The notes below the pieces were generated by a model. That model was not told the DNA's origin, did no database searches, and saw only the letters and a program-made list of their open reading frames with translations. A stretch of 37,518 bases of DNA, taken from assembly GCA_964423565.1 (NCBI GenBank), contig CAYREZ010000001.1, positions 976 to 38,493 on the forward strand, read 5' to 3'. The DNA comes from an uncultured Gammaproteobacteria bacterium. Its GTDB lineage: Bacteria > Patescibacteriota > Microgenomatia > UBA8517. The stretch's first letter is position 1. Each line of letters opens with the position of its first letter. Of the stretch, positions 3,441 through 28,051 are shown piece after piece. Position numbers and translations under genes: made by a program.

Positions 3441-4613
3441 CTACTTTATATAAGTTGAAATAATAACATCCGCATTAACTTCAGAGTATTTCTTTTCTGC
3501 AAATTTTCTCGCATTATCTGACAATTTTTTTAGTTTATCAGGATTTTTATAAAAATACTCAGCCGACTCTTTAATCTTTTCTGGAGTCACGTCGATTAAC
3601 TTTCCCACGCTTTGGTCAATCGCCTCCGGAATTGCGCCTCTATTAGATCCGATTACCGGAGTACCACACGCCAAAGATTCCAAAATCACTCTTCCGAAAC
3701 CTTCCTCATGTACCGAAGGAACTATTAAAACATCCGCCGCATTATAGTACTTAGGCAACTCATCATTATCTATTTTTCCTAAGTATTGAACATTGGAAAT
3801 TGGAAATCCATCGACTTCGCTCGGGACGGTGAGTTTGTCGAACCGTTGGAAATTGGAAATTGTATTTTCCATCGGTCCTGTTCCAATTATCGTCAAAGTT
3901 ATGTTTTTATCCCAAATTTTAGCCACTTCCAAAAGTTCATTAATACCCTTTTCTAGCACTAACCTCCCCACAAATAAAACAATAAATTTATCTTCCCAGC
4001 CAATCTGTTTTTTAACTTGTCTCTTGTTACTTGTTGCCTTAAACTTATCTAGATCCACCCAATAAGTAAACTCTTGAATTTTAATGTTATCTATCCCCAG
4101 ACTTTTAATTTCTTCAGCTGATTGTTTGGATAATACCAAAATCTTATCAGACTTATTAAAAATCCATTTGGCAAAGATGTGATATAAACCTGCTTTTGGA
4201 AAATTATATATCGAGTGCGTCGTAGTTATAACTTTTTTAGAGAAAACTTTGCTCCAAAAAACCGCTGCAAATCCGGCAATAAGTCCATGACTGTGTATAA
4301 CAGAAATATTTTTTTCTTTAATCAATAAAACTGGTATAAACAGAAAAAGTCCCGGTATTAAGTACATAAATTCCAAAATAGGATTGTTAACAAGATTATA
4401 AAAAACGCCACCGAACCACGGAATTCTATAAATAGTCAAATTACCATTCTTTTCAATAAACGGTGCTGAAGCTTTTGTCGTGATAGGTTTATAAGTTAAT
4501 ACATCAACCTTCCAACCTTTTTTCAAAAGGACTTTTGTCAGATCATCAAAATGCGTTTCGATTCCGCCAATATTGGGCGAATAAGCAATAGTAGTAAGAA
4601 GTACTTCTTTCAT
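3441..4613 (-). CDS. GT4-family (GT-B fold) glycosyltransferase carrying a translated repeat element
   Basis: 390-aa ORF. C-terminal EEGFGRVILESLACGTPVIGS is the E-x7-E region of Glycos_transf_1. The linker ...ISNFQRFDKLTVPSEVDGFPISNVQYLG is encoded by the repeat at 3793-3860. Confidence 0.85.
   Translation of the reverse strand: MKEVLLTTIAYSPNIGGIETHFDDLTKVLLKKGWKVDVLTYKPITTKASAPFIEKNGNLTIYRIPWFGGVFYNLVNNPILEFMYLIPGLFLFIPVLLIKEKNISVIHSHGLIAGFAAVFWSKVFSKKVITTTHSIYNFPKAGLYHIFAKWIFNKSDKILVLSKQSAEEIKSLGIDNIKIQEFTYWVDLDKFKATSNKRQVKKQIGWEDKFIVLFVGRLVLEKGINELLEVAKIWDKNITLTIIGTGPMENTISNFQRFDKLTVPSEVDGFPISNVQYLGKIDNDELPKYYNAADVLIVPSVHEEGFGRVILESLACGTPVIGSNRGAIPEAIDQSVGKLIDVTPEKIKESAEYFYKNPDKLKKLSDNARKFAEKKYSEVNADVIISTYIK
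3793..3860 (+). repeat. Mini-element copy 1: 15-bp direct repeat, 38-nt core, 15-bp direct repeat
   Basis: TTGGAAATTGGAAAT (3793-3807), then CCATCGACTTCGCTCGGGACGGTGAGTTTGTCGAACCG, then TTGGAAATTGGAAAT (3846-3860). Its first 38 nt match the reverse complement of 20239-20276 at 36/38 positions. The overall architecture is shared with 20212-20276. Confidence 0.75.
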
Positions 4614-5638: not shown

Positions 5639-6399
5639 ATAAATCGCATAAGTCTTACCCAAAGAAATTGTGGTAAAACATTCTTAAGCAAAATCATTAT
5701 TTTCGCATCTGTTCCAATTATCAATATTGGAAGAGGGTTGCTTTTATTGATTAAAGTAATAATTTTCGCGGCGACATAATCCGGGGTCAGCATGGGAAAT
5801 AATAACTTTAAAATTAAAAACTTTTCCCGCGCAGGCTTGTGATGTAAAACCGTCGTATTCTCGCCTGTTTTTTTAATTGCACCCGGGATAATATTGATGA
5901 CGAAAATTTTGTCTTTATATAACTCGTAGTACAGCGCGTCGCCCAAGGCTTCTAAGGCGTGTTTGGATGCTGAGTATAAACCGAAGTTCGGAAGCGAAAT
6001 TAACCCGTTTAATGAAGTTATGTTGACGATTTTTCCTCCACCATTCATCTTCATCAATGGATAAATATTTTTAATTAATCTAAATACTCCGAATAAATTA
6101 ACGTTAACAATATCCCTAAAATCCGATTCAGAAAAACCCAAACTCGGCCCGCTAATGGTATATCCTGCAATATTTACAAGTACATCTACTTTTTTTTCTT
6201 TTTGGCTAATCTTACTTACTAGTTTCTCGCAGGCGTCTGAATTAGTAATATCTAAAGTGAGGGCAATAATGTTTTGATATCCATATTCAACTTTTTGTTT
6301 AGATAGGGCATATACAATGTAATCTGCCTTCGATAAACGCAAAATAACCTCTCTACCAATTTCACTGTTTGCTCCAGTAACAACTGCAATTTTTTTCAT
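5626..6399 (-). CDS. SDR-family NAD(P)-dependent oxidoreductase
   Basis: 257-aa ORF. Contains KIAVVTGANSEIGREV (TGxxxxxG) and the catalytic YSASKHALEAL (YxxxK). Confidence 0.85.
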   Translation of the reverse strand: MKKIAVVTGANSEIGREVILRLSKADYIVYALSKQKVEYGYQNIIALTLDITNSDACEKLVSKISQKEKKVDVLVNIAGYTISGPSLGFSESDFRDIVNVNLFGVFRLIKNIYPLMKMNGGGKIVNITSLNGLISLPNFGLYSASKHALEALGDALYYELYKDKIFVINIIPGAIKKTGENTTVLHHKPAREKFLILKLLFPMLTPDYVAAKIITLINKSNPLPILIIGTDAKIMILLKNVLPQFLWVRLMRFIWEK

Positions 6400-7514
6400 A
6401 GACTTTCTATTAATTCAAGACTTTCTTTGGTAGCCTTTTTCCAATTAAATTTGCTCGCCCATTTTCGACAATTTTTTTGCATAGATTGGTATTCAATCTT
6501 ATTGCCAACTAGTTTTAAAGCATTTTCAGCTAAAGCTTTATATTCTCCCTTCCCTACTAAAATCCCTGTCTTGTTATTAACTACCGAATCTTTTAAACCA
6601 TGCACATTATACCCTACAACTGGTGTACCTACCGAGTTCGCTTCGATATTTACCAATCCCCATCCTTCATGATAAGAAGGATTAATTAAAAGTTGTGCAC
6701 TTGCCAGCAAATCAAACTTTTTAGAATCGGTTACATAACCCCAGATCTTTAATTTTTCAATAATTCCTACATCGCGAGCTAATTGTTTTAATTTTCTTAT
6801 ATAAGCACCGGTTCCGGTTCCGACTATCCAATATTGCCAATTATCATCCTTCCTTTCTATTTCGCCGAAAACTCTTACTGCATCAAAAGTACCTTTATCT
6901 TCGCTTATCGCTCCTAAATAAATAGCTGTTTTTTTTGCTTCTTTATCGGGAAGGATTTTAGGAAGATGTAACTTAACACCGTTTTGGATAATTGTTATAT
7001 TGTTCTTTGGAATTCCCCAATCAACAAGATCGAATTTTGTTGAGTTTGAAACAGTTAGAAATGGTATTTTCCTGTAAAATAAACGAAAAATATAACGCTC
7101 AAAAAAAATACCAAAAATAGAAGGTAGAATATTTAAGGGCTTAGGCCAAGGATTAAGTTTCCAAACTTCCCTTGCCACTTCATGAATGAATCCAAGTTTG
7201 CGTGACCTTACATATAGAGGAGTGAAAAAAGGGATTCCATGAAACTCATCAACAACAAGGTCAAATTTTGGATGTTTTTTAAGGAAGTACCATAGGAATG
7301 CCCGTATTTTTACTCCGAATACTGCTTCCCCAGACCTTATAATCCTTACTCCGCTTACTTTTTCGTCTCTCTTCGCCCCTATATAAAATGAAGAAAATAA
7401 GCAAACGTCGTGTCCCCCCATTACCCAGGCTTTTGCGTGTTCAAACGTGACTTGTTCAGCTCCTCCAGCGTTCGGATGACCTTGGCTTCTCCAAGAAAGT
7501 ATAAGTATGTTCAT
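6396..7514 (-). CDS. GT4-family glycosyltransferase
   Basis: 372-aa ORF. HEGWGLVNIEANSVGTPVVGYN is the E-x7-E motif. ATGA overlap at 6396-6399. Confidence 0.85.
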   Translation of the reverse strand: MNILILSWRSQGHPNAGGAEQVTFEHAKAWVMGGHDVCLFSSFYIGAKRDEKVSGVRIIRSGEAVFGVKIRAFLWYFLKKHPKFDLVVDEFHGIPFFTPLYVRSRKLGFIHEVAREVWKLNPWPKPLNILPSIFGIFFERYIFRLFYRKIPFLTVSNSTKFDLVDWGIPKNNITIIQNGVKLHLPKILPDKEAKKTAIYLGAISEDKGTFDAVRVFGEIERKDDNWQYWIVGTGTGAYIRKLKQLARDVGIIEKLKIWGYVTDSKKFDLLASAQLLINPSYHEGWGLVNIEANSVGTPVVGYNVHGLKDSVVNNKTGILVGKGEYKALAENALKLVGNKIEYQSMQKNCRKWASKFNWKKATKESLELIESL

Positions 7515-14138: not shown

Positions 14139-14180
14139 CAATCGTAATAATATCACTCAGATAAGAATATTTGAACCTTG

Positions 14181-14201
14181 CAAGGAGAATCCTTTAAAGG
14201 T
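14181..14201 (+). repeat. REP-like 21-mer, copy 1 (upstream of transposase gene)
   Basis: CAAGGAGAATCCTTTAAAGGT. It can fold as AAGGA-GAA-TCCTT, or through the perfect palindrome CCTTTAAAGG. It is preceded by a second palindrome, CCTTGCAAGG (14176-14185). Confidence 0.8.
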
Positions 14202-14211
14202 AACATAAGTC

Positions 14212-14895
14212 GTGCCTAGTAGAAATGTAATTAAAATTTACATAGAAAACGGTTACTACCATATTTATAATCGCGGAGTTGAGAAACGAATAATCTTTAA
14301 GGATACACAGGATTATAAAGTTTTTTTAACATACCTTAAGGAATACCTCTCACCACCACCTAAACCGGAACATATAAAAACTATATTCATCTTACAAGGA
14401 GAATCCTTTAAAGGTATTAAAAGACAGCCAAAGAACTACTATAAAGAAATCGAACTTATTTCCTATTGCCTGATGCCAAACCACTTCCATCTGTTAATAA
14501 AACAGGTTTCAAAATATTCTATAGAAAAATTTATAAGATCTTTAGCTACGCGCTATTCAGTATTTTTCAATAAGAAATACAACAGAGTTGGTAGTTTATT
14601 CCAAGGTCCATATAAAGCTGTATTAATTTCAAGTGAAAATTATTTGCTACACTTGAGCAGGTATATACATCTTAACCCTTCGGAATATACTGACGATCTA
14701 ATTAACTCATATTCGTCATATGCAGCTTATTTAGGATTACGTAGAACAAATTGGGTTAATTCCGATATTGTTCTAAATTACTTTAATAAACCTGTTGTAA
14801 AAGATTTTATAAAAGTAAATACTTATAAGCGTTTTGTAGAAAAATATAAAAAGGATTCTAGAAAACTTCTAGGGAAATTAACTCTCGAAAATTAA
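14212..14895 (+). CDS. IS200-like Y1 (HUH) transposase / REP-associated tyrosine transposase (RAYT)-like protein
   Basis: 227-aa ORF with a GTG start. Contains YHIYNRGVEKRIIF, the HUH motif YCLMPNHFHLLIK, GSLFQGPYKAVLI, and the catalytic-Tyr region LHLSRYIHLNP. Confidence 0.8.
   Translation: MPSRNVIKIYIENGYYHIYNRGVEKRIIFKDTQDYKVFLTYLKEYLSPPPKPEHIKTIFILQGESFKGIKRQPKNYYKEIELISYCLMPNHFHLLIKQVSKYSIEKFIRSLATRYSVFFNKKYNRVGSLFQGPYKAVLISSENYLLHLSRYIHLNPSEYTDDLINSYSSYAAYLGLRRTNWVNSDIVLNYFNKPVVKDFIKVNTYKRFVEKYKKDSRKLLGKLTLEN
14389..14425 (+). repeat. REP-like repeat, copy 2 (37-nt extended form, inside the transposase CDS)
   Basis: AACTATATTCATCTTACAAGGAGAATCCTTTAAAGGT matches 14894-14930 at 34/37 positions. 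It is translated as ...TIFILQGESFKG... Confidence 0.8.
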
Positions 14896-14930
14896 CTATA
14901 TTCACCTCTCAAGGAGAATCCTTTAAAGGT
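14894..14930 (+). repeat. REP-like repeat, copy 3 (37-nt extended form, downstream of transposase gene)
   Basis: AACTATATTCACCTCTCAAGGAGAATCCTTTAAAGGT. Its start overlaps the transposase stop codon (14893-14895). Its last base overlaps the stop codon of the convergent GT2 gene (14930-14932). Confidence 0.8.
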
Positions 14931-15850
14931 CAAGATTTAACACTTTGCCAATACTTAAAATAAGCAATCGGGTAACGTAATGCAGAAAAAACTGACCAGA
15001 TAAAGCCGCGCATACCGTCTAAGTATCCTTTATGCCTCAGGTAGAGTAATAGAAAGAGATAGAAAGGTTTAATAAATGAGAAATATAAAAGATGTATGAT
15101 GCTACGCTTGGACTTAAACTTAATCTTAAACTCTTTTGCCTGTAGGTCGGTATACCGATTCAGTCTCTCCAAGTACCGGCTAAATGTTGGGGATTCATGG
15201 TGTTCTAAGTCGTTAAAGAGCCATGCAACTTCCCCATCAACTTCCATTAGTTCATGAACCGACTTTGCCGGAAATTTTGCCTTACCGAACTTTACTAGTC
15301 TTATAACTCCGTCTGGATAAACTCCTGCGTGAACCAGTTGTTTACCTAAAAAAAAGTTTCTGCGTGGGATGAAAAATGCAACAATCTCGCCGCTTTCCGT
15401 TCCAATATGACCTTCCCGCTTTTCAATTAACTTTTGGTGCCTCAAAAAAAGTTCATATAACTCATTTTTTTCATTACACTTTCGTTCAAACTGATCACGG
15501 ACAATTTGATTGTTTTCAAATTTAACAACTTCTTTAATCTCTTCCCCCAACTTAGGTGTTACCCTCTCATCAGCATCTAATTGGAGTATCCAATTCCCGC
15601 TTGCCGCACTCAATGCCTTTTGTTTGGTAATATGGAATATTGGTTCGTGTTTTACAGTAAAAACTTTTGCTCCATACTTTTTGGCAATTTCAGGTGTTTT
15701 ATCGCTTGACTCCTCGTCAAAAATGATAATTTCATCTGCAATATATTTTATCGATTCAAGACATTCACCAATATTTTGCTCTTCGTTTCTTGTTGCTAAA
15801 ACAACCGAAAGTGTTTTATGAGATAAGGGTCGAAGATTATGTTTTTTCAT
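14930..15850 (-). CDS. GT2-family glycosyltransferase
   Basis: 306-aa ORF. Contains LSVVLATRNEEQNIGECLESIKYIADEIIIFDEESSDKTPEIAKKYGAKV and LQLDADE (DxD). Confidence 0.8.
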   Translation of the reverse strand: MKKHNLRPLSHKTLSVVLATRNEEQNIGECLESIKYIADEIIIFDEESSDKTPEIAKKYGAKVFTVKHEPIFHITKQKALSAASGNWILQLDADERVTPKLGEEIKEVVKFENNQIVRDQFERKCNEKNELYELFLRHQKLIEKREGHIGTESGEIVAFFIPRRNFFLGKQLVHAGVYPDGVIRLVKFGKAKFPAKSVHELMEVDGEVAWLFNDLEHHESPTFSRYLERLNRYTDLQAKEFKIKFKSKRSIIHLLYFSFIKPFYLFLLLYLRHKGYLDGMRGFIWSVFSALRYPIAYFKYWQSVKS

Positions 15851-17193: not shown

Positions 17194-18870
17194 TCAATTT
17201 GCTACGATCTGAAAATACTTATATCCATTTGTTCCATAAATTTCCTCGACAATATTTGACTCCTCCAATATTTCCTTATCAGTTCCTGCAAATAGCGCTC
17301 CCGGATATTTTACCCTATCTTCATCCCAATTAATCTTATTAAATTCAAACTTATCGAAATTTCTTACCGTTGAAAAATTATATGTATCCCGTTGTGTCAG
17401 CTCATGATTACCCTGAAACCTAGCCGGTGGATACTTAAGATAAAACAAAAATAATATATAAGGTTGATCATATCTATTACTAACGACTATTTTATTAAAT
17501 TTATCACCATTTTTCTCAACATAATCAACCAGCTCCTTTATCCCATATTGCGATGAGAAAGGATATTCTTTTGCCATATGAACCCAATACATATGCTCGT
17601 AGCGAGTGAAGTTCCAAATAACAAATAATCCAATAAACAAATAAACAAATGATTTGATGAATTTTGAAAATTGTTTGAACGCGTGTGAAGGAATTGATTA
17701 TATAGCAGATAAACCGGTGGCACTGATTATCGTAAGGGGGACTACCATATTTTGTGCACGGAGTGCATGCGGTGATTGAAAAGTAAGCGCCGCGCCTACG
17801 GGTGCGACAATCAACCACCATAAGATTAGAGTATAGGATTTAAAATACTGGGATAACGATTTAATTACAAAAATGATCCCACAGACAATAAATAGTATAT
17901 CAAATAAGTACATTTGCCCCGTTTCCGGCACTCGATTACGCTCTATGACATCTCCTGATAAAAAAAGAAATTCCCCGTTGTAATGCTTAACCCAGTTATT
18001 GGTAAAAGCCAAGCCATAATTTACCAATTTATTATGTATTGTTTTAGAAAATAAACCCTGAAAATTATTATGCTCACCCCTTTGTTCATTAGTCCTGGCG
18101 AGTGGCCCAGTATCTGCAAATAAGCCAACGCCTGCCATCCTCGATGTAATGTTTCCCTTTGTTAAATCTTTCGCCAACGGCATTAACGTAACCAATCCGA
18201 CTAGTGCCGCTAAAGCAAAATTTAGCAAATGTTTGCGAACATATTTAAAGTAAATAAGAAATAATCCGACTCCAATAAGGGGAGTAATTACGCGTGCAGA
18301 ATGATATGCGTATAAAGACAACGTAAAAACCAAAGAGCTTAAAAAAAGATATACTATATTGTTCAATCCTTTTAGGAAAAACCATAGACCTAATACGATA
18401 AAAAATGTCGCAACATTTACTTCCCATCCTCCACGCGAAAAATGTATATGCCAGGGGCTAATTGCAAGCAGAAAGCTTGCAATATGACCAGTGCCTAATT
18501 TCAAATCTCCAATTGCTAATTTCTTATTATCAAATAATTCGCCTACTAATAAATAAACCAGATAAATGGTTAAGAGCCCGAATAATGTCCCAGGAATTCT
18601 AACCGACCATGCATTTAACCCAATGAATTTTACAAAAGGTAAAACCATATAGAAATACAAACCAGGTTTATAATCGTTGAAAGATTGAAAGTGAATCGGC
18701 CAGGGATTACCATGCTCGTCTTTACCTGTTTCTAATAGTGAATAAGCGTTATAACCAATTGCAGCCTCGTCAGCATTTAAAGCAGGATAACTACCGAGTT
18801 TCCAGAACCTTAAAAATGCCGCCAATAAAATGATCAGTAGTAAAATATATTTATGATATTTATTTCCCAT
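17194..18870 (-). pseudogene. ArnT/PMT_2-like GT-C glycosyltransferase, paralogue A, interrupted by one in-frame TAA
   Basis: Track ORFs 17698..18870 (390 aa) and 17194..17640 (148 aa, TTG pseudo-start) are in the same frame. They are separated only by TAA (17700..17698) and 19 sense codons. The joined 558-codon frame aligns end to end with the intact paralogues (N-terminal DEAAIGYNAY, SPWHIHFSRG, C-terminal QPYILFLFYLKYPP). Confidence 0.65.
18461..18483. other. perfect 9-bp stem / 5-nt loop palindrome inside the paralogue A coding sequence
   Basis: Gene strand: ATTGCAAGC-TTTCT-GCTTGCAAT, encoding I-A-S-F-L-L-A-I. It is positionally homologous to the palindrome at 20189-20211. Confidence 0.8.
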
Positions 18871-20188
18871 GTTACATATAATGATATATCATACAGATGA
18901 CTATTTAATTTCTATAATACGAAAAGCAGTTTCACCATTCAAATATTTAATCTCATTTATTAAAGTGAATAATTTCGTATCGCTCGAATCTTGCGGCGGT
19001 ATTCGTACCGAATCGCCAATTATTAAAGATCCGCTATCACCGCGATTTAAAGACCAGTCTATGGGAACAAATTCAATATTATCAAGTTTATTGACATATC
19101 CAACATCGCCAATTAGACCGCTATCTACTAGCTTTGACTTTTTTTGATAAACGGCTGGCGGATATTTTTGGTAGAAAAGGAAATATATATAAGGTTGAGC
19201 AAATGATTGCTGGACTTTCACTGTAGTATAATTTTTTTGAATAGGAGTGACAATTTCGACCATCTGTTTATACCCATACTCCCAAAGTTTTGAGTTATGT
19301 TTCGAAAGATGAATAAAATAAGAATCGAGGTAATAGACAAGCGAACCAACAAACAAAATAGATATAAAACTAATAAACGAAAATTTCTTTAAGTTATTAC
19401 TTAAATTTTTATTAAACCCAAAAATATCAATAAGCCCAAAAGACGATAAAAATGTAAGGGGAATTACCATATTTAAAGACCTGATTGCATGTACTTGATC
19501 GCGGGATAATACTGCCGGAAGTGGTGCTAAAAGAAGCCATAACAAGATAAAATAAGTAAATTTATTCGACTTGCGGATGATAGAATTAAATCCGATAACA
19601 AGTAAAATTATATCTGATAGAAGTAGCATGCCATGATTAGGAGCAGAATGTCTTGGATTCTGCCAATCTCCTTCAAAGAACAAAAACCTACCCGAGAAGT
19701 GATTAAACCACCGACTCATTATTCCCCTTTTATAATTTAGGGGCTCGCTATGGAAAAGATAGTAATTTAAGCTACCAACTTTCTCATTCCCCTGATCTAA
19801 AAATGTCTGTAGGTATTCTTTAGTCCTAGGGTAGGAAAAAACATTGAAGACATTTAATCTTCCCGTTTGTCCAAAGTGAAAACTTATCAAAACTGGCAAA
19901 ACAATAATTAAACCTACTATCGTGGACTGTATCACAGTAACAAGGTTATTAGTAATAATTACTTTTGTTTCTCGCCAATAACCAACAATAAGGACAAAAA
20001 TAACAATTAATGTTGATAATTTAGCACCTTGGTAAGTAAGCACCGTCAGCGAAAAAAATACTGATGCAAGTATAAGGAATTTACTTTTATCCAACGCTTT
20101 GAGAAAAAAGTAAATTCCGAATAAAGTCAGAGTTAAAGCTAAATTAGCTTCCCAAGCTCCCCGGGAAAAATGGATATGCCCGGGATTA

Positions 20189-20211
20189 ATCGCGAGTAAT
20201 GAACTCGCGAT
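20189..20211. other. perfect 9-bp stem / 5-nt loop palindrome inside the paralogue B coding sequence
   Basis: Gene strand: ATCGCGAGT-TCATT-ACTCGCGAT, encoding I-A-S-S-L-L-A-I. It is unusually GC-rich for this sequence and directly abuts the repeat element at 20212-20276. Confidence 0.8.
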
Positions 20212-20276
20212 AATTTCCAATTTCAAACAGTCAGGCAAACCGACCCGAGCGAAGTCGAGGGATTTCCAATTTCCAA
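20212..20276 (-). repeat. Mini-element copy 2 (inverted relative to copy 1): direct repeat, 35-nt core, direct repeat
   Basis: Minus strand: TTGGAAATTGGAAAT, then CCCTCGACTTCGCTCGGGTCGGTTTGCCTGACTGT, then TTGAAATTGGAAATT. The core spans 20227-20261. It is 35 nt long, not a multiple of 3. Confidence 0.75.
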
Positions 20277-20632
20277 TATATTTTTTAATCTTATTTTTTT
20301 AACTATCAGATACATTAACCAGACAGCAATTACTCCCGCTATCGCACTAGGAAGTCTTACCGCAAATTCGGTTAATCCGAAGATTGCGATAAAAGGCACG
20401 GTGGTGTAAATATAAAAACCGGGTTTGTAATCCCCGAATGACTTAAAAATAACAGGTAGTAATTTACCGTACTCATCTCTTCCGGTTTTCAAAATAGAAT
20501 AGGCATTATATCCCAATGCCGCCTCATCCGGTGTTAAACTGGGCGGTAAACTCCCCAACTGCCATATTCTCAAAATTGCAGCTAATATAAGAATAGGAAA
20601 TATAGAATTATGAAATAAGAATTTTTTTATGT

Positions 20633-21277
20633 TCATACTTTAAACATAAACTTTTTTACAAATTTATTTACAGTCCCATGTTCGTCTCCAGTAACCACTG
20701 CGATTCCGCTTATTATCCCCTTGGCTATTGAAATTCCTTTTTGGTTATATTCCTTCTGAATTTTTTCTGCAGTTTTTTCATCCTTGAATCTAAGGAAGGT
20801 AAGATGTGGATGGTATTCAGTCATCACCTGAGGATAACCAAATGCTTTAATATATTCTCGTTGTCTGCCTGGGAATCTATTGGAATCTTTTAGTTCTATC
20901 CTATGTTTTTCACTGATATGACCTTCTCTTAAAGGATTAATAATTTTTAATACCTTTTTATGAATTGAATATAGCTGACTACCCTTCTTAAAATCTAATC
21001 CTACCCATCCCCGTTCTGAATAAAGTTTATTAAATTGTAATTCGAAAGGCGTTGTATTTTTTACAATACTTCTTAATAAACTGAAAAATTTCCTTTTATT
21101 TTTAGTAGGAAATTCGACTTTATAAATCGTGATATGAGCGAAATTTATTTTATTATCTATCTTAAAATAAATATCGCCTTTTGTAGAAACTTCATTTGCG
21201 AGCTGTTTAGCTAATTCAGATACCGATTTATTTGGTAATAAAATTATTCTGTAGGTAACAAACTTATCTTTTTTCAT
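20633..21277 (-). CDS. 2H-phosphoesterase superfamily protein (LigT / 2'-5' RNA ligase-like, cyclic phosphodiesterase-like)
   Basis: Two H-x-[TS]-x motifs are present: FAHITIYK and HPHLTFLRF. The ATG at 21277 (MKKDKFVTYRIILL...) is preferred over 21322. Overlaps with both flanking GT-C genes suggest translational coupling. Confidence 0.55.
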   Translation of the reverse strand: MKKDKFVTYRIILLPNKSVSELAKQLANEVSTKGDIYFKIDNKINFAHITIYKVEFPTKNKRKFFSLLRSIVKNTTPFELQFNKLYSERGWVGLDFKKGSQLYSIHKKVLKIINPLREGHISEKHRIELKDSNRFPGRQREYIKAFGYPQVMTEYHPHLTFLRFKDEKTAEKIQKEYNQKGISIAKGIISGIAVVTGDEHGTVNKFVKKFMFKV

Positions 21278-26353: not shown

Positions 26354-28051
26354 CTATTTAAGGGGGGTTTGTACAATATATATCGCAGGGTCACCATTTG
26401 GATAATAAATTACATGATCAGGTATTATATTCTTAAATTCTTCTGGTTTTCCTGCCATCACGATTCCTTCTTCTTTACCATATTTTAAAAGATCTATATC
26501 CCCGAAAACATAATTTTCGAGTTCCCATTTCGGCATTTGGTCGACCCATCCCAAACCAAGCTTTCGATAATTCCACTCCTTTGCATACTTTTGATAACTT
26601 GAGGGTTCCATACGGTTTGCAAAAGCTATAAAAATATTCGGTTCAGAAAGAGTTCTGCTCACAATAATTTGCTTACTTTGCGCATTCGTATTTAGCCACT
26701 GAGCGGCCTTTAAGCTCCCATAAAGCATATCTTTAGAAGATTTTTGAGGGGAAACCAAAAAATAATCTAATAGAAAATATATAAAAATTAAAGTAGATGC
26801 AAATATGTAGGAAACATATACTAACTTCTTATATTTAAAGTCTGCAATATAGTTAACAACTTGAAGCAAACCGAATGCAAGCAAAATTTGGATTGATGGC
26901 AGTTGAATTACTGCCCTATTAGCCGCATAACCCGGACCGAGTGATAAAGCGGCAGGAATTGGCGCAATAAAAAACCAAAATAATATTAACTTAAAAAGTT
27001 TATTAACTCGAGCTTTTGTAATAAATAGAAAAAACCCTAGCAACAGTGGCAGTTCGAACCAATACAAAACTCCCCTACCCGGAATCATGCCGTAGGTAGC
27101 TTCAGCAGGACCCTGAAAAAAATAGTACTGGGGTGAAAAGTAGGATACATAGTTGGCAGTAAAATGCCTTAAACCCATGACAAACTTATTAAAAAATAAC
27201 CTTCCGGTGAAAGGATCCATACCCATATTAATGGCTTTTATTCGCTCAGAGGATGCCTCCATAAGTGAAAGCTTGAATATGCTTACATCCAAAATGCGGG
27301 TTGATGATCCGGACATAAGAGTCCAAAAAAATGCAGCTGCAAAAATTAATGCAATAAATATACTGATCTTATGATATTTCCCGAAATTTCTAAAAACCTC
27401 TTTCCTGAAAATTACCAGCGCAAAAATAAAAACAAGCGGAGTAATTAATTTAGCGGAATGGTAGCTGAAAATGTTTAATCCCGCTAAAATTACCGAGTAC
27501 GTAAAATATTTTGGGTTATTTAACCCCTTAAGAAACAGATAAATTGCTAGTGGAAGAAAAAACGTTGTTAGGTTTGCCTCAAACGCTCCCCTGCTCATCA
27601 TTATGTGCCAGGGTGAAATCGCAAGTAGAAATGCTGCGACATATTCTATATTTCCAATTCCAATATTCTTTAATGCTTTTGAAGGTGTCTCACTTAACCC
27701 GAGATATTTCCCGTAGGATTTAGAAACTAATCGGGTTAACAGAAAAGTCACGTAAATCGCAAGAGTTCCCGACAGTGCGTTTGGTAGCCTGGTCGCGACT
27801 TTATTAAGTCCCAATAATCCAATAGATGGAATAGTAAGATACGCATATAACGGAGATTTGAAATCTCCTGCAGACTCTAGCGTCAAAGGAAAACTTTTTC
27901 CCCATTGATCTTTGCCTGTTTTTAAAAGTGAATAGGCATCATATCCGAACGAAGACTCGTCCGGTGTAAATCCGACAGGATACTTATCAAGAGATGTTAC
28001 ACGTAGAAGCAGTCCCAGTAATAAAATAACCGCAAGTAAATAGCGTTTCAT
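26354..28051 (-). CDS. ArnT/PMT_2-like GT-C glycosyltransferase, paralogue D (intact)
   Basis: 565 aa. Contains TPDESSFGYDAYSLLKTGKDQWG and SPWHIMMSRGAFEAN. The variable loop is ...KYLGLSETPSKALKNIGIGNIEY... Confidence 0.85.
   Translation of the reverse strand: MKRYLLAVILLLGLLLRVTSLDKYPVGFTPDESSFGYDAYSLLKTGKDQWGKSFPLTLESAGDFKSPLYAYLTIPSIGLLGLNKVATRLPNALSGTLAIYVTFLLTRLVSKSYGKYLGLSETPSKALKNIGIGNIEYVAAFLLAISPWHIMMSRGAFEANLTTFFLPLAIYLFLKGLNNPKYFTYSVILAGLNIFSYHSAKLITPLVFIFALVIFRKEVFRNFGKYHKISIFIALIFAAAFFWTLMSGSSTRILDVSIFKLSLMEASSERIKAINMGMDPFTGRLFFNKFVMGLRHFTANYVSYFSPQYYFFQGPAEATYGMIPGRGVLYWFELPLLLGFFLFITKARVNKLFKLILFWFFIAPIPAALSLGPGYAANRAVIQLPSIQILLAFGLLQVVNYIADFKYKKLVYVSYIFASTLIFIYFLLDYFLVSPQKSSKDMLYGSLKAAQWLNTNAQSKQIIVSRTLSEPNIFIAFANRMEPSSYQKYAKEWNYRKLGLGWVDQMPKWELENYVFGDIDLLKYGKEEGIVMAGKPEEFKNIIPDHVIYYPNGDPAIYIVQTPLK

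Follow-up and report, generated by a model that had tools for sequence, protein, structure and literature searches.

A small dispersed repeat with a hairpin core, translated in frame within unrelated genes of Woesebacteria

The stretch of DNA analysed here (the window, 37,518 nt) comes from Candidatus Woesebacteria bacterium GW2011_GWA1_37_7, an organism of the Rifle aquifer, and is a glycosylation locus. It contains a minus-strand gene for a GT4 glycosyltransferase (KKQ38101.1) and, between positions 17698 and 35710, at least seven tandem paralogs of a GT-C (PMT_2/ArnT-like) membrane glycosyltransferase. The GT4 gene carries the 68-bp element that is the subject of this study, termed S1, in which two perfect copies of TTGGAAATTGGAAAT enclose the 38-nt core CCATCGACTTCGCTCGGGACGGTGAGTTTGTCGAACCG (plus strand, 3793–3860); this matches exactly the repeat-core-repeat sequence described in the initial annotation of the locus. 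The GC content of the S1 core is 60.5%, compared to 34.4% for the window. An inverted copy, S2 (20212–20277), lies 16.4 kb away in one of the GT-C genes, and no other full copy of the element is present in the window. The coordinates of all features are collected in Table 1, where loci and proteins from other sequences are cited by L and P numbers.

The GT4 open reading frame (ORF) remains open through S1, as annotated, and reads ...TISNFQRFDKLTVPSEVDGFPISNVQYLG... across it; the frame is ISNFQRFDKLTVPSEVDGFPISN (longer context, GTGPMENTISNFQRFDKLTVPSEVDGFPISNVQYLG), with the core translated within the peptide RFDKLTVPSEVDG. The corresponding linker had been judged about eight residues longer than that of the GT4 paralog at 6396–7514, which holds, and an alignment with about 29 true orthologs from Woese-, Davies- and Amesbacteria (55–65% identical, except for the 99% identical strain variant P0001) showed nearly all of these to be 13 residues shorter in the stretch from GTGP to YLG. 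P0001 also has the S1 insert. The absence of the segment from orthologs speaks against a native linker. In an AlphaFold2 model of the protein (mean pLDDT 87), the 13 extra residues (258–270, FDKLTVPSEVDGF) score below 50 and are modelled as a flexible loop, after a short helix and ahead of the following strand, between the second and third strands of the C-terminal Rossmann domain. There is no sign that the enzyme would benefit from this peptide. Since an identical GT4 protein occurs on 10 contigs from independent ENA, JGI and NCBI assemblies, S1 is not an assembly artefact.

A gapped blastn search of S1 against the rest of the window returned S2 at E=1.6e-17, with 84.3% identity, seven mismatches and four gaps in 70 columns, so that both the inverted second copy proposed in the annotation and the significance of the match between the two loci are borne out. 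A repeat search of the window paired 3792–3830 with 20239–20277 at 37 of 39 positions (95%), and 3828–3861 with 20212–20245 at 79% identity, offset by an indel. The 15-nt core word TCGACTTCGCTCGGG is found in the window solely at S1 and S2; allowing up to two mismatches, six occurrences of a 15-mer were counted where 0.56 were expected, a number reached in none of 100 shuffles. The inverted orientation and the high identity of the first arms would be expected of recombination sites that invert the glycosylation locus. Such an inversion would, however, break both genes, independent contigs (L002 and L001 for S1, L153 for S2) show one arrangement only, and the unit occurs singly in other genomes, all of which renders this role highly improbable.

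The host of S2 is indeed an unrelated GT-C gene, but it is not intact. In a sister strain (L153) the gene is 98% identical and four bases longer (CTCGGGAAGGTCGG as opposed to CTCGGGTCGG), its core measures 38 nt, and the product is an intact protein of 579 aa reading ...ILEIGNPSTSLGKVGLPDCLKLEIIGSS... in frame. Relative to this strain S2 has lost four nucleotides (GGAA), and this deletion is the reason why the gene of the window strain is split into two ORFs. Within the 90% identity cluster of the protein, seven of nine members are intact at 579 aa with the element in frame, the two split ones being the window genome and one scaffold; the split ORF is recorded on one contig only. S2 is an older, partly decayed copy. 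Directly 3′ of it, a perfect 9-bp inverted repeat (ATCGCGAGT-TCAT-ACTCGCGAT; minus strand, 20189–20211) lies within coding sequence, and in L153 a change of two adjacent bases from CG to GC (Ala to Gly) breaks this palindrome.

Translational bypassing is known from T4 gene 60 and from the GC-rich byp elements of Magnusiomyces mitochondria. At S2, ribosomes might accordingly take off at TTG GAA ATT in the first half-array and land on the same codons 56 nt downstream, restoring the GT-C protein. Removal of the 56 nt does restore the frame exactly, joining ...KNILEI to IASSLLAINPGH; matching codons stand on both sides, the insert is GC-rich within an AT-rich genome, and a stop lies inside the gap. 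Conversely, the sister strain and seven of the nine cluster members have the plain in-frame version, no stop directly follows the putative take-off codon, and S1 and all other copies are open and read through in frame, S2 of the window alone being out of frame. As the element is in frame and stop-free, ordinary translation suffices, and bypassing is very unlikely.

Additional copies were sought with an nhmmer profile, which gave full-length matches to S1, S2 and seven further loci (L139, L140, L151, L147, L132, L145 and L153; E from 1e-14 to 1e-24). The family consensus is ATTGGAAATTGGAAAT - CCCTCGACTTCGCTCGGGATGGTGAGCNTGTCGAACCA - TTGGAAATTGGAAATT, which is stop-free in five of the six frames. 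With one genome per species, the pattern GGAAATCCNTCGACTTCGCTC retrieved 23 loci, five of which, from three metagenome-assembled genomes (MAGs) of Woesebacteria, hold the complete unit, and a sixth genome with the element was found through the GT-C ortholog P0133. Five or more genomes of Woesebacteria carry full copies, which lie in both orientations, in four reading frames and within six unrelated protein families (Table 1). A longer, nested variant has an extra module, CCTTCGGCTCTGAGGCTCAGGCTCGAAG, within the core loop (L145, 1348–1445; L151, 7115–7171); it is found in one Woesebacterium within the arginyl-tRNA synthetase (ArgRS) and in a second one within a third GT-C paralog. An 87-aa ORF that ends in the translated element (P0241; L158, 4001–4264; present on at least 24 contigs) has no Pfam hit and is probably a spurious gene call over the intergenic copy upstream of the GH57 gene.

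The four frames yield four unrelated peptides, which excludes a protein-level explanation, in agreement with the argument of the initial annotation that protein homology could not account for the sharing. Beyond the low complexity of the heptamers, nothing favors an origin by chance or assembly artefact, from native sequence or from selection for a peptide motif, and the blastn E-value, the unrelated peptides, the absence of the segment from orthologs and its identity in 10 independent contigs leave these origins next to no credibility. A census at the protein level is of little weight because queries this short lack power: a concatenated five-frame query returned three candidates only, and a 30-aa translation from the window three hits, two of which are eukaryotic satellite junk.

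Table 1. Positions of the element, its hosts and related heptamer arrays. Plain numbers are window coordinates; L numbers denote other loci.
Feature	Position	Strand	Sequence or reading	Basis or context
GT4 glycosyltransferase gene hosting S1	3441..4613	-		Pfam Glycos_transf_1 and Glyco_transf_4
S1 left heptamer half-array, 2.3 units of TTGGAAA	3792..3807	+	ATTGGAAATTGGAAAT	TRF: period 7, 2.3 copies, 100% matches
S1 GC-rich core, 38 nt, imperfect hairpin	3808..3845	+	Arms TCGACTTCGCTC and GAGTTTGTCGA	Fold
S1 right heptamer half-array, 2.4 units	3846..3862	+	TTGGAAATTGGAAATTG	TRF
N-terminal fragment (137 aa) of GT-C (PMT_2/ArnT-like) gene	20223..20636	-	Ends inside S2	ORF and Pfam
S2 5′ heptamer half-array	20262..20277	-	ATTGGAAATTGGAAAT	Sequence, TRF
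S2 core, 34 nt	20228..20261	-	First arm as family consensus, second arm decayed	Sequence, nhmmer profile
S2 3′ heptamer half-array	20212..20227	-	TTTGAAATTGGAAATT; holds the TGA ending the upstream ORF	Sequence
C-terminal fragment of the same GT-C gene	18901..20238	-	Other frame; KKQ38118.1 (439 aa, later start)	
Solo degenerate heptamer pair, no core	18498..18512	-	TTGGAGATTTGAAAT, read AIGDLKLG	GT-C paralog 17698–18870, same loop
Solo heptamer pair, no core	27650..27664	-	ATTGGAATTGGAAAT, read NIGIGN	GT-C paralog 26354–28051, same loop
Copy in DUF3105 protein	L132		ISNGSTGSPSRAKSKDFQFP	Pfam
Copy in RecF	L140		NFQFPMVRHAHHPERSRGISNFQ	Pfam
Copy in ArgRS	L145		LEIGNPSTSLG...WKLEI	Extra module nested in core
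Copy in GT4, at a position other than that of S1	L147		LEIGNPSTSLG...WKLEI	
Two full copies in GT-C	L151			
Copies in GT-C proteins	P0121, P0133		LEIGNPSTSLG...WKLEI	
Intergenic copy, 6 nt upstream of GH57 start codon	L139, L158-160			
Heptamer arrays, ~4.4-5.3 units	L156 1258-1289; L157 1260-1292; L132 4796-4828; L133 5160-5190		In frame	
Heptamer arrays, ~4.4-5.3 units	L139 6391-6415; L145 1612-1645; L005 1492-1528, 2117-2140		In frame	
Heptamer arrays, ~4.4-5.3 units	L151 566-596, 1812-1842; L027 6185-6217		In frame	

The core has a far wider distribution than the complete unit and is a pan-bacterial hairpin rather than a lineage-specific sequence. The core pattern CCNTCGACTTCGCTCGGGNCGG (20 specified bases), for which roughly one chance match per 10^12 bases is estimated, occurs in at least 120 metagenome contigs with GC contents of 36–76%, although this core-only scan is too general to trace the element, the window's own population not being among the matches listed. 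The complete two-arm core is present in contigs of 43–65% GC, and at 36 of 38 positions the S1 core is identical to hairpins in contigs of 54–62% GC (the unrelated L091 and L066); in this and in its GC content it resembles foreign sequence. Matches to a related pattern in genomes span more than 10 phyla and include Flavobacterium, Chryseobacterium, Chitinophagaceae, Acidobacteriaceae, Archangium, Verrucomicrobia and Lentisphaerae as well as Omnitrophota, Vulcanimicrobiota, Clostridiales, Parcubacteria, Levyibacteriota and Terrybacteria; in other phyla, the same 38-nt core lacks TTGGAAA.

The hairpin consists of two copies of a short module in opposite orientation, each with a CCC/GGG stem, extended by one or two pairs that covary, enclosing a strongly conserved loop sequence of 12 nt (TCGACTTCGCTC / GAGCNNNGTCGA). 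As the first pair outside CCC/GGG, 61 copies have TA, 54 have CG and nine have GC, and the second arm exhibits a compensatory change between C-G in S1 and the generic copies and T-A in the Woesebacteria consensus. Hairpins outside the candidate phyla radiation (CPR) are enriched for flanking exact tandem heptamers (8/125 sites vs. 32/2285 controls, p=8e-4). In low-GC genomes, single modules are found in frame in a GyrA-like gene (L100) and in YchF (L137). Together with its partner GAGCNNGTCGA, the module CC(C/T)TCGACTTCGCTC(G/A)GG makes up a GC-rich hairpin that is near-identical in more than 10 phyla (L007-L126, L128-L150), arranged singly, in inverted pairs or in tandem arrays (L068, L083, L036), and that serves as the loop of terminator-like stems in the low-GC contigs L053, L098 and L122; no published name for it was found. 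The two-arm core also occurs in two viral contigs of IMG/VR (CCTTCGACTTCGCTCAGGATGGTGAGCATGTCGAACCAT; L154, 1978–2011, and L155, 4866–4899), where inverted runs of GGAAGC-type 7-8-mers lie on its flanks; among viral contigs, the generic core was found twice and the TTGGAAA version not at all.

The repeats that flank the core are present as annotated, but they are not simply a repeat pair: with 2.3–2.4 units of TTGGAAA on each side, they form the two halves of a heptamer array of about 4.7 units, and such arrays also occur in orthologs without an insertion. GT4 orthologs lacking the insert show, precisely where S1 is located, a heptamer array without interruption, a perfect (AAATCAA)x4.6 in L156 and (AAAGTKA)x4.7 in L157, and two further orthologs, L005 and L006, hold other GC-rich cores between other tandem heptamers at this spot. 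Cores of this kind flanked by tandem heptamers were identified in L005 (TCAACCA), L006 (AGAATTA) and L027, and none in a shuffled control. The flanks of 16 and 17 nt add up to the typical length of a solo array, 31–34 nt. Among tandem repeats of at least three copies in 260 kb of low-GC loci, 12 arrays of period 7 and two of period 8 were found and none of any other period; this count is biased, since part of the sample was selected through the element, and six of the arrays are unrelated to it. The period-7 arrays are 31–37 nt long and lie in frame within long ORFs, their CPR hosts including GT4, a RecJ-like protein, ArgRS, a methyltransferase and membrane proteins. In a Flavobacterium locus (L131, 387–608), two generic hairpin modules accompany a heptamer array of 31.7 units (ATAATGG/ATAATTG).

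Filled and empty states can be compared most directly in the GT-C family, where several paralogs have TTGGAAA-like heptamers in the same loop, ahead of a conserved LLAISPWH helix. All intermediates between the two states occur. The DNA of P0172 holds a single CTGGAAAT here (protein ...RNLEILAPALL), the window paralogs at 17698–18870 and 26354–28051 have two heptamers (Table 1), an L151 paralog has four heptamers without a core (SLEIRNLKLEIL), P0133 (...SLEIGNPSTSLGMVSRSNHWKLEILAPALL) and P0121 have two heptamers, the core and two more, and an L152 paralog has a truncated core between two and two. The filled P0133 exceeds the one-heptamer state by 60 nt and the four-heptamer state by 39 nt, and the latter two differ by 21 nt, all of these being whole codons. 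P0133 and P0172 fit a duplication of TTGGAAAT(T), though the element ends have the same heptamer, and the four-heptamer paralog and the GT4 orthologs fit an insertion without target duplication. The element is a unit that is dispersed, free of stops and a whole number of codons in length, and its translation yields a loop. Placed in a loop that tolerates it, the unit leaves the gene open and gives the protein 13–20 extra residues whose sequence is set by orientation and frame only, as shown for the GT4 gene.

Heptamer arrays in coding sequence could also indicate phase variation, in which surface-glycosylation genes are switched by slippage and the hairpin modulates the slippage. Glycosyltransferases make up the majority of hosts, with GT4 at three sites and five or more GT-C paralogs, GT4 orthologs keep their arrays while the unit sequence differs, and one strain has its GT-C gene off through an indel in the element. 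However, the element is also found in RecF, ArgRS and DUF3105, the strain difference is a loss of 4 nt in the core with the number of heptamers unchanged, the number of units is constant in sets of 8, 9 and 6 near-identical sequences, and the arrays are short (2+2 units), so that phase variation is improbable.

According to the best explanation, S1 is one copy of a dispersed, gene-free and very small repeat family, which has probably spread as a whole unit into heptamer sites. The weakest step of this reading is the copying itself, in which the whole unit would enter sites that already hold a TTGGAAAT-like heptamer, either through template switching or recombination on the heptamer microhomology or through a trans-acting enzyme that would recognize the conserved hairpin loop. 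Copying of the whole unit is favored because the same heptamer surrounds the same core at at least seven unrelated loci and because P0172 and P0133 differ by 60 nt.

The main rival holds that only the 38-39-nt hairpin (13 codons) inserts, without target duplication, into the center of pre-existing arrays of about 4.7 units. The arrays would then be an independent, common feature of these genomes and the TTGGAAA flanks the target, an architecture like that of cyanobacterial small dispersed repeats (SDRs). This is consistent with the uninterrupted arrays of 4.6–4.7 units at the S1 position of un-inserted GT4 orthologs, with the gains of 13 residues in S1 and of 39 nt in P0133 over its four-heptamer paralog, and with the summed flank length. 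The dominance of period-7 arrays in the low-GC loci, all within ORFs, the other cores between other heptamers and the enrichment of tandem heptamers around cores that lack TTGGAAA point in the same direction. However, the same TTGGAAA surrounds the same core at all these unrelated loci, in at least five genomes, and core-only insertion would require a prior (TTGGAAA)4 in RecF, ArgRS, DUF3105 and GT4, an improbable condition if the unit does not travel as a whole. At the empty site P0172 there is one heptamer, not four, and in ArgRS and the L147 GT4 the whole unit, some 20–35 residues, appears as extra sequence relative to the Pfam profiles. Insertion of the core alone is thus possible but clearly less likely than spread of the whole unit.

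Several observations weigh against the spread of a mobile unit, for which the distribution alone is the evidence. No presence/absence polymorphism was found at 90% identity or above, S1 being present in 8/8 sequences and the L147 copy in all full-length members of its GT4 cluster, which speaks against recent activity. Neither a transposase nor terminal inverted repeats nor a clean target-site duplication was identified for the element, and the sole transposase-like gene in the window (14212–14895) has different flanking repeats. Inheritance, as opposed to independent origin, could account for the copies that occupy the same loop in several GT-C paralogs. The net gain of S1 relative to orthologs is 13 residues, not 20, which means either that native sequence was lost or that the core alone was inserted into an existing array. 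By exact pattern, no more than three copies were seen in any one MAG, and the core hairpin (-4 to -6 kcal/mol) is no more stable than shuffled sequences (z from -0.65 to +0.72).

Other origins were considered and rejected. A structured RNA or tRNA origin found no match in Rfam 15 or by ARAGORN at either the element or the generic hairpin, which fold no better than shuffles, and an Acido-Lenti-1 match in L097 is located elsewhere and unrelated in sequence to the element. Phage and plasmid collections gave no meaningful blastn matches. No terminator-like site was found, and promoter-like matches were at background level. A link to the Y1 transposase gene of the window was set aside, as the repeats flanking that gene are unrelated to the element. 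Literature searches by peptide, DNA string and concept found no description in the papers covered, which, together with the absence from Rfam and from the phage and plasmid collections, is in line with the suggestion of the initial annotation that no such element has been described for CPR genomes.

The annotation had likened the element to Rickettsia palindromic elements (RPEs), and the copies in frame in six unrelated families of Woesebacteria bear this out as far as behavior is concerned. RPEs are clearly palindromic repeats of about 100–150 bp that are found in frame in unrelated, partly essential genes and are translated (Ogata et al., 2000, 2002, as summarized in PMC10969869). Both are short repeats without genes of their own, inserted in frame and in multiple copies into unrelated and partly essential genes in several genomes of one lineage; both are translated and expected in surface loops, and for neither is a transposase known. 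In contrast to RPEs, the element measures 68–70 bp, about half as much, its core is weakly palindromic and common to many phyla, it includes heptamer arrays, and its hosts are CPR/Patescibacteria instead of Alphaproteobacteria; this distinction is drawn against descriptions of RPEs.

The architecture is closer to that of the SDRs of Nostocaceae, which are reportedly small hairpins often embedded in tandem heptamers and sometimes nested. Their mobility is said to have been deduced from presence/absence at orthologous sites, with the enzyme unknown. The hairpin core of the element likewise lies within tandem heptamers (2.3 + 2.4 units) and has a nested variant (L145, L151), a likeness that depends on these reported features. 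SDRs, grouped here with the heptamer repeats of cyanobacteria known as short tandemly repeated repetitive sequences (STRRs; Elhai et al., 2008, cited in PMC4390886, PMC5861425 and PMC3116915), differ from it in scale, being 21–27 nt long and restricted to Nostocaceae (PMC5861425). By comparison, the core of the element measures 38–39 nt, occurs in many phyla, and lies mostly within ORFs in Woesebacteria; SDR1-8 were compared by description only. The element thus resembles RPEs in behavior and SDRs in architecture and is a member of neither.

[quoted passage not shown] MITEs, however, derive from insertion sequences and are defined by terminal inverted repeats and target-site duplication, whereas the ends of the element are direct repeats, ATTGGAAATTGGAAAT on both sides, with inverted symmetry inside the core only. 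Neither the window nor the other loci analysed yielded a parent insertion sequence whose ends match. Repetitive extragenic palindromic (REP) sequences and the REPINs built from them are short, GC-rich, imperfect palindromes clustered around the gene of a REP-associated tyrosine transposase (RAYT; PMC3116915). The element shares with them a short GC-rich imperfect palindrome with a conserved part and many copies, and the window has a weakly RAYT-like Y1 gene; in contrast to REPs, its copies are mostly intragenic, and it bears no relation to the repeats (CAAGGAGAATCCTTTAAAGGT) on either side of the Y1 gene. This Y1 (IS200/RAYT-like) gene encodes 227 aa and scores 36.7 bits against the REP-associated tyrosine transposase model (cut-off 80). 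A repeat of about 47 nt with the core CAAGGAGAATCCTTTAAAGGT lies upstream of it (14163–14209), downstream (14892–14938) and inside its ORF (14377–14423), always in the same orientation. Finally, the mobile GC clusters and byps of yeast mitochondria are GC-rich hairpin inserts of 27–55 nt with matching flanks in protein genes of AT-rich genomes; byps are organellar and skipped by the ribosome, while the element is bacterial and in frame.

CPR/Patescibacteria have small genomes and are usually described as poor in mobile DNA. The element represents selfish DNA that ends up as loops of proteins in a lineage for which no such case had been reported, a translated repeat found in housekeeping (ArgRS, RecF) as well as cell-envelope (GT4, GT-C) genes. 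It offers a tangible origin for insertions of the lineage-specific kind that are frequently noted in CPR proteins, it can confound gene calling through split genes (KKQ38118.1) and spurious ORFs (P0241), and it is a marker for strain and lineage history. The array with a central hairpin, together with near-identity across more than 10 phyla, points to a shared mechanism. A broader proposal, more doubtful even than core-only insertion in the Woesebacteria, is that the 38-39-nt hairpin is a pan-bacterial mobile element of exactly 13 codons, moved by a widely distributed enzyme or repair pathway acting at tandem heptamers. If so, the numerous in-frame CPR arrays of roughly 4.7 units would serve it as landing pads or represent its footprints, and an insertion mechanism not recognized before would be continuously adding loops of 7, 13 or 20 residues to proteins across Patescibacteria, essential ones included, linking the biology of CPR, Bacteroidota, Acidobacteriota and Myxococcota with that of the cyanobacterial SDRs and STRRs.

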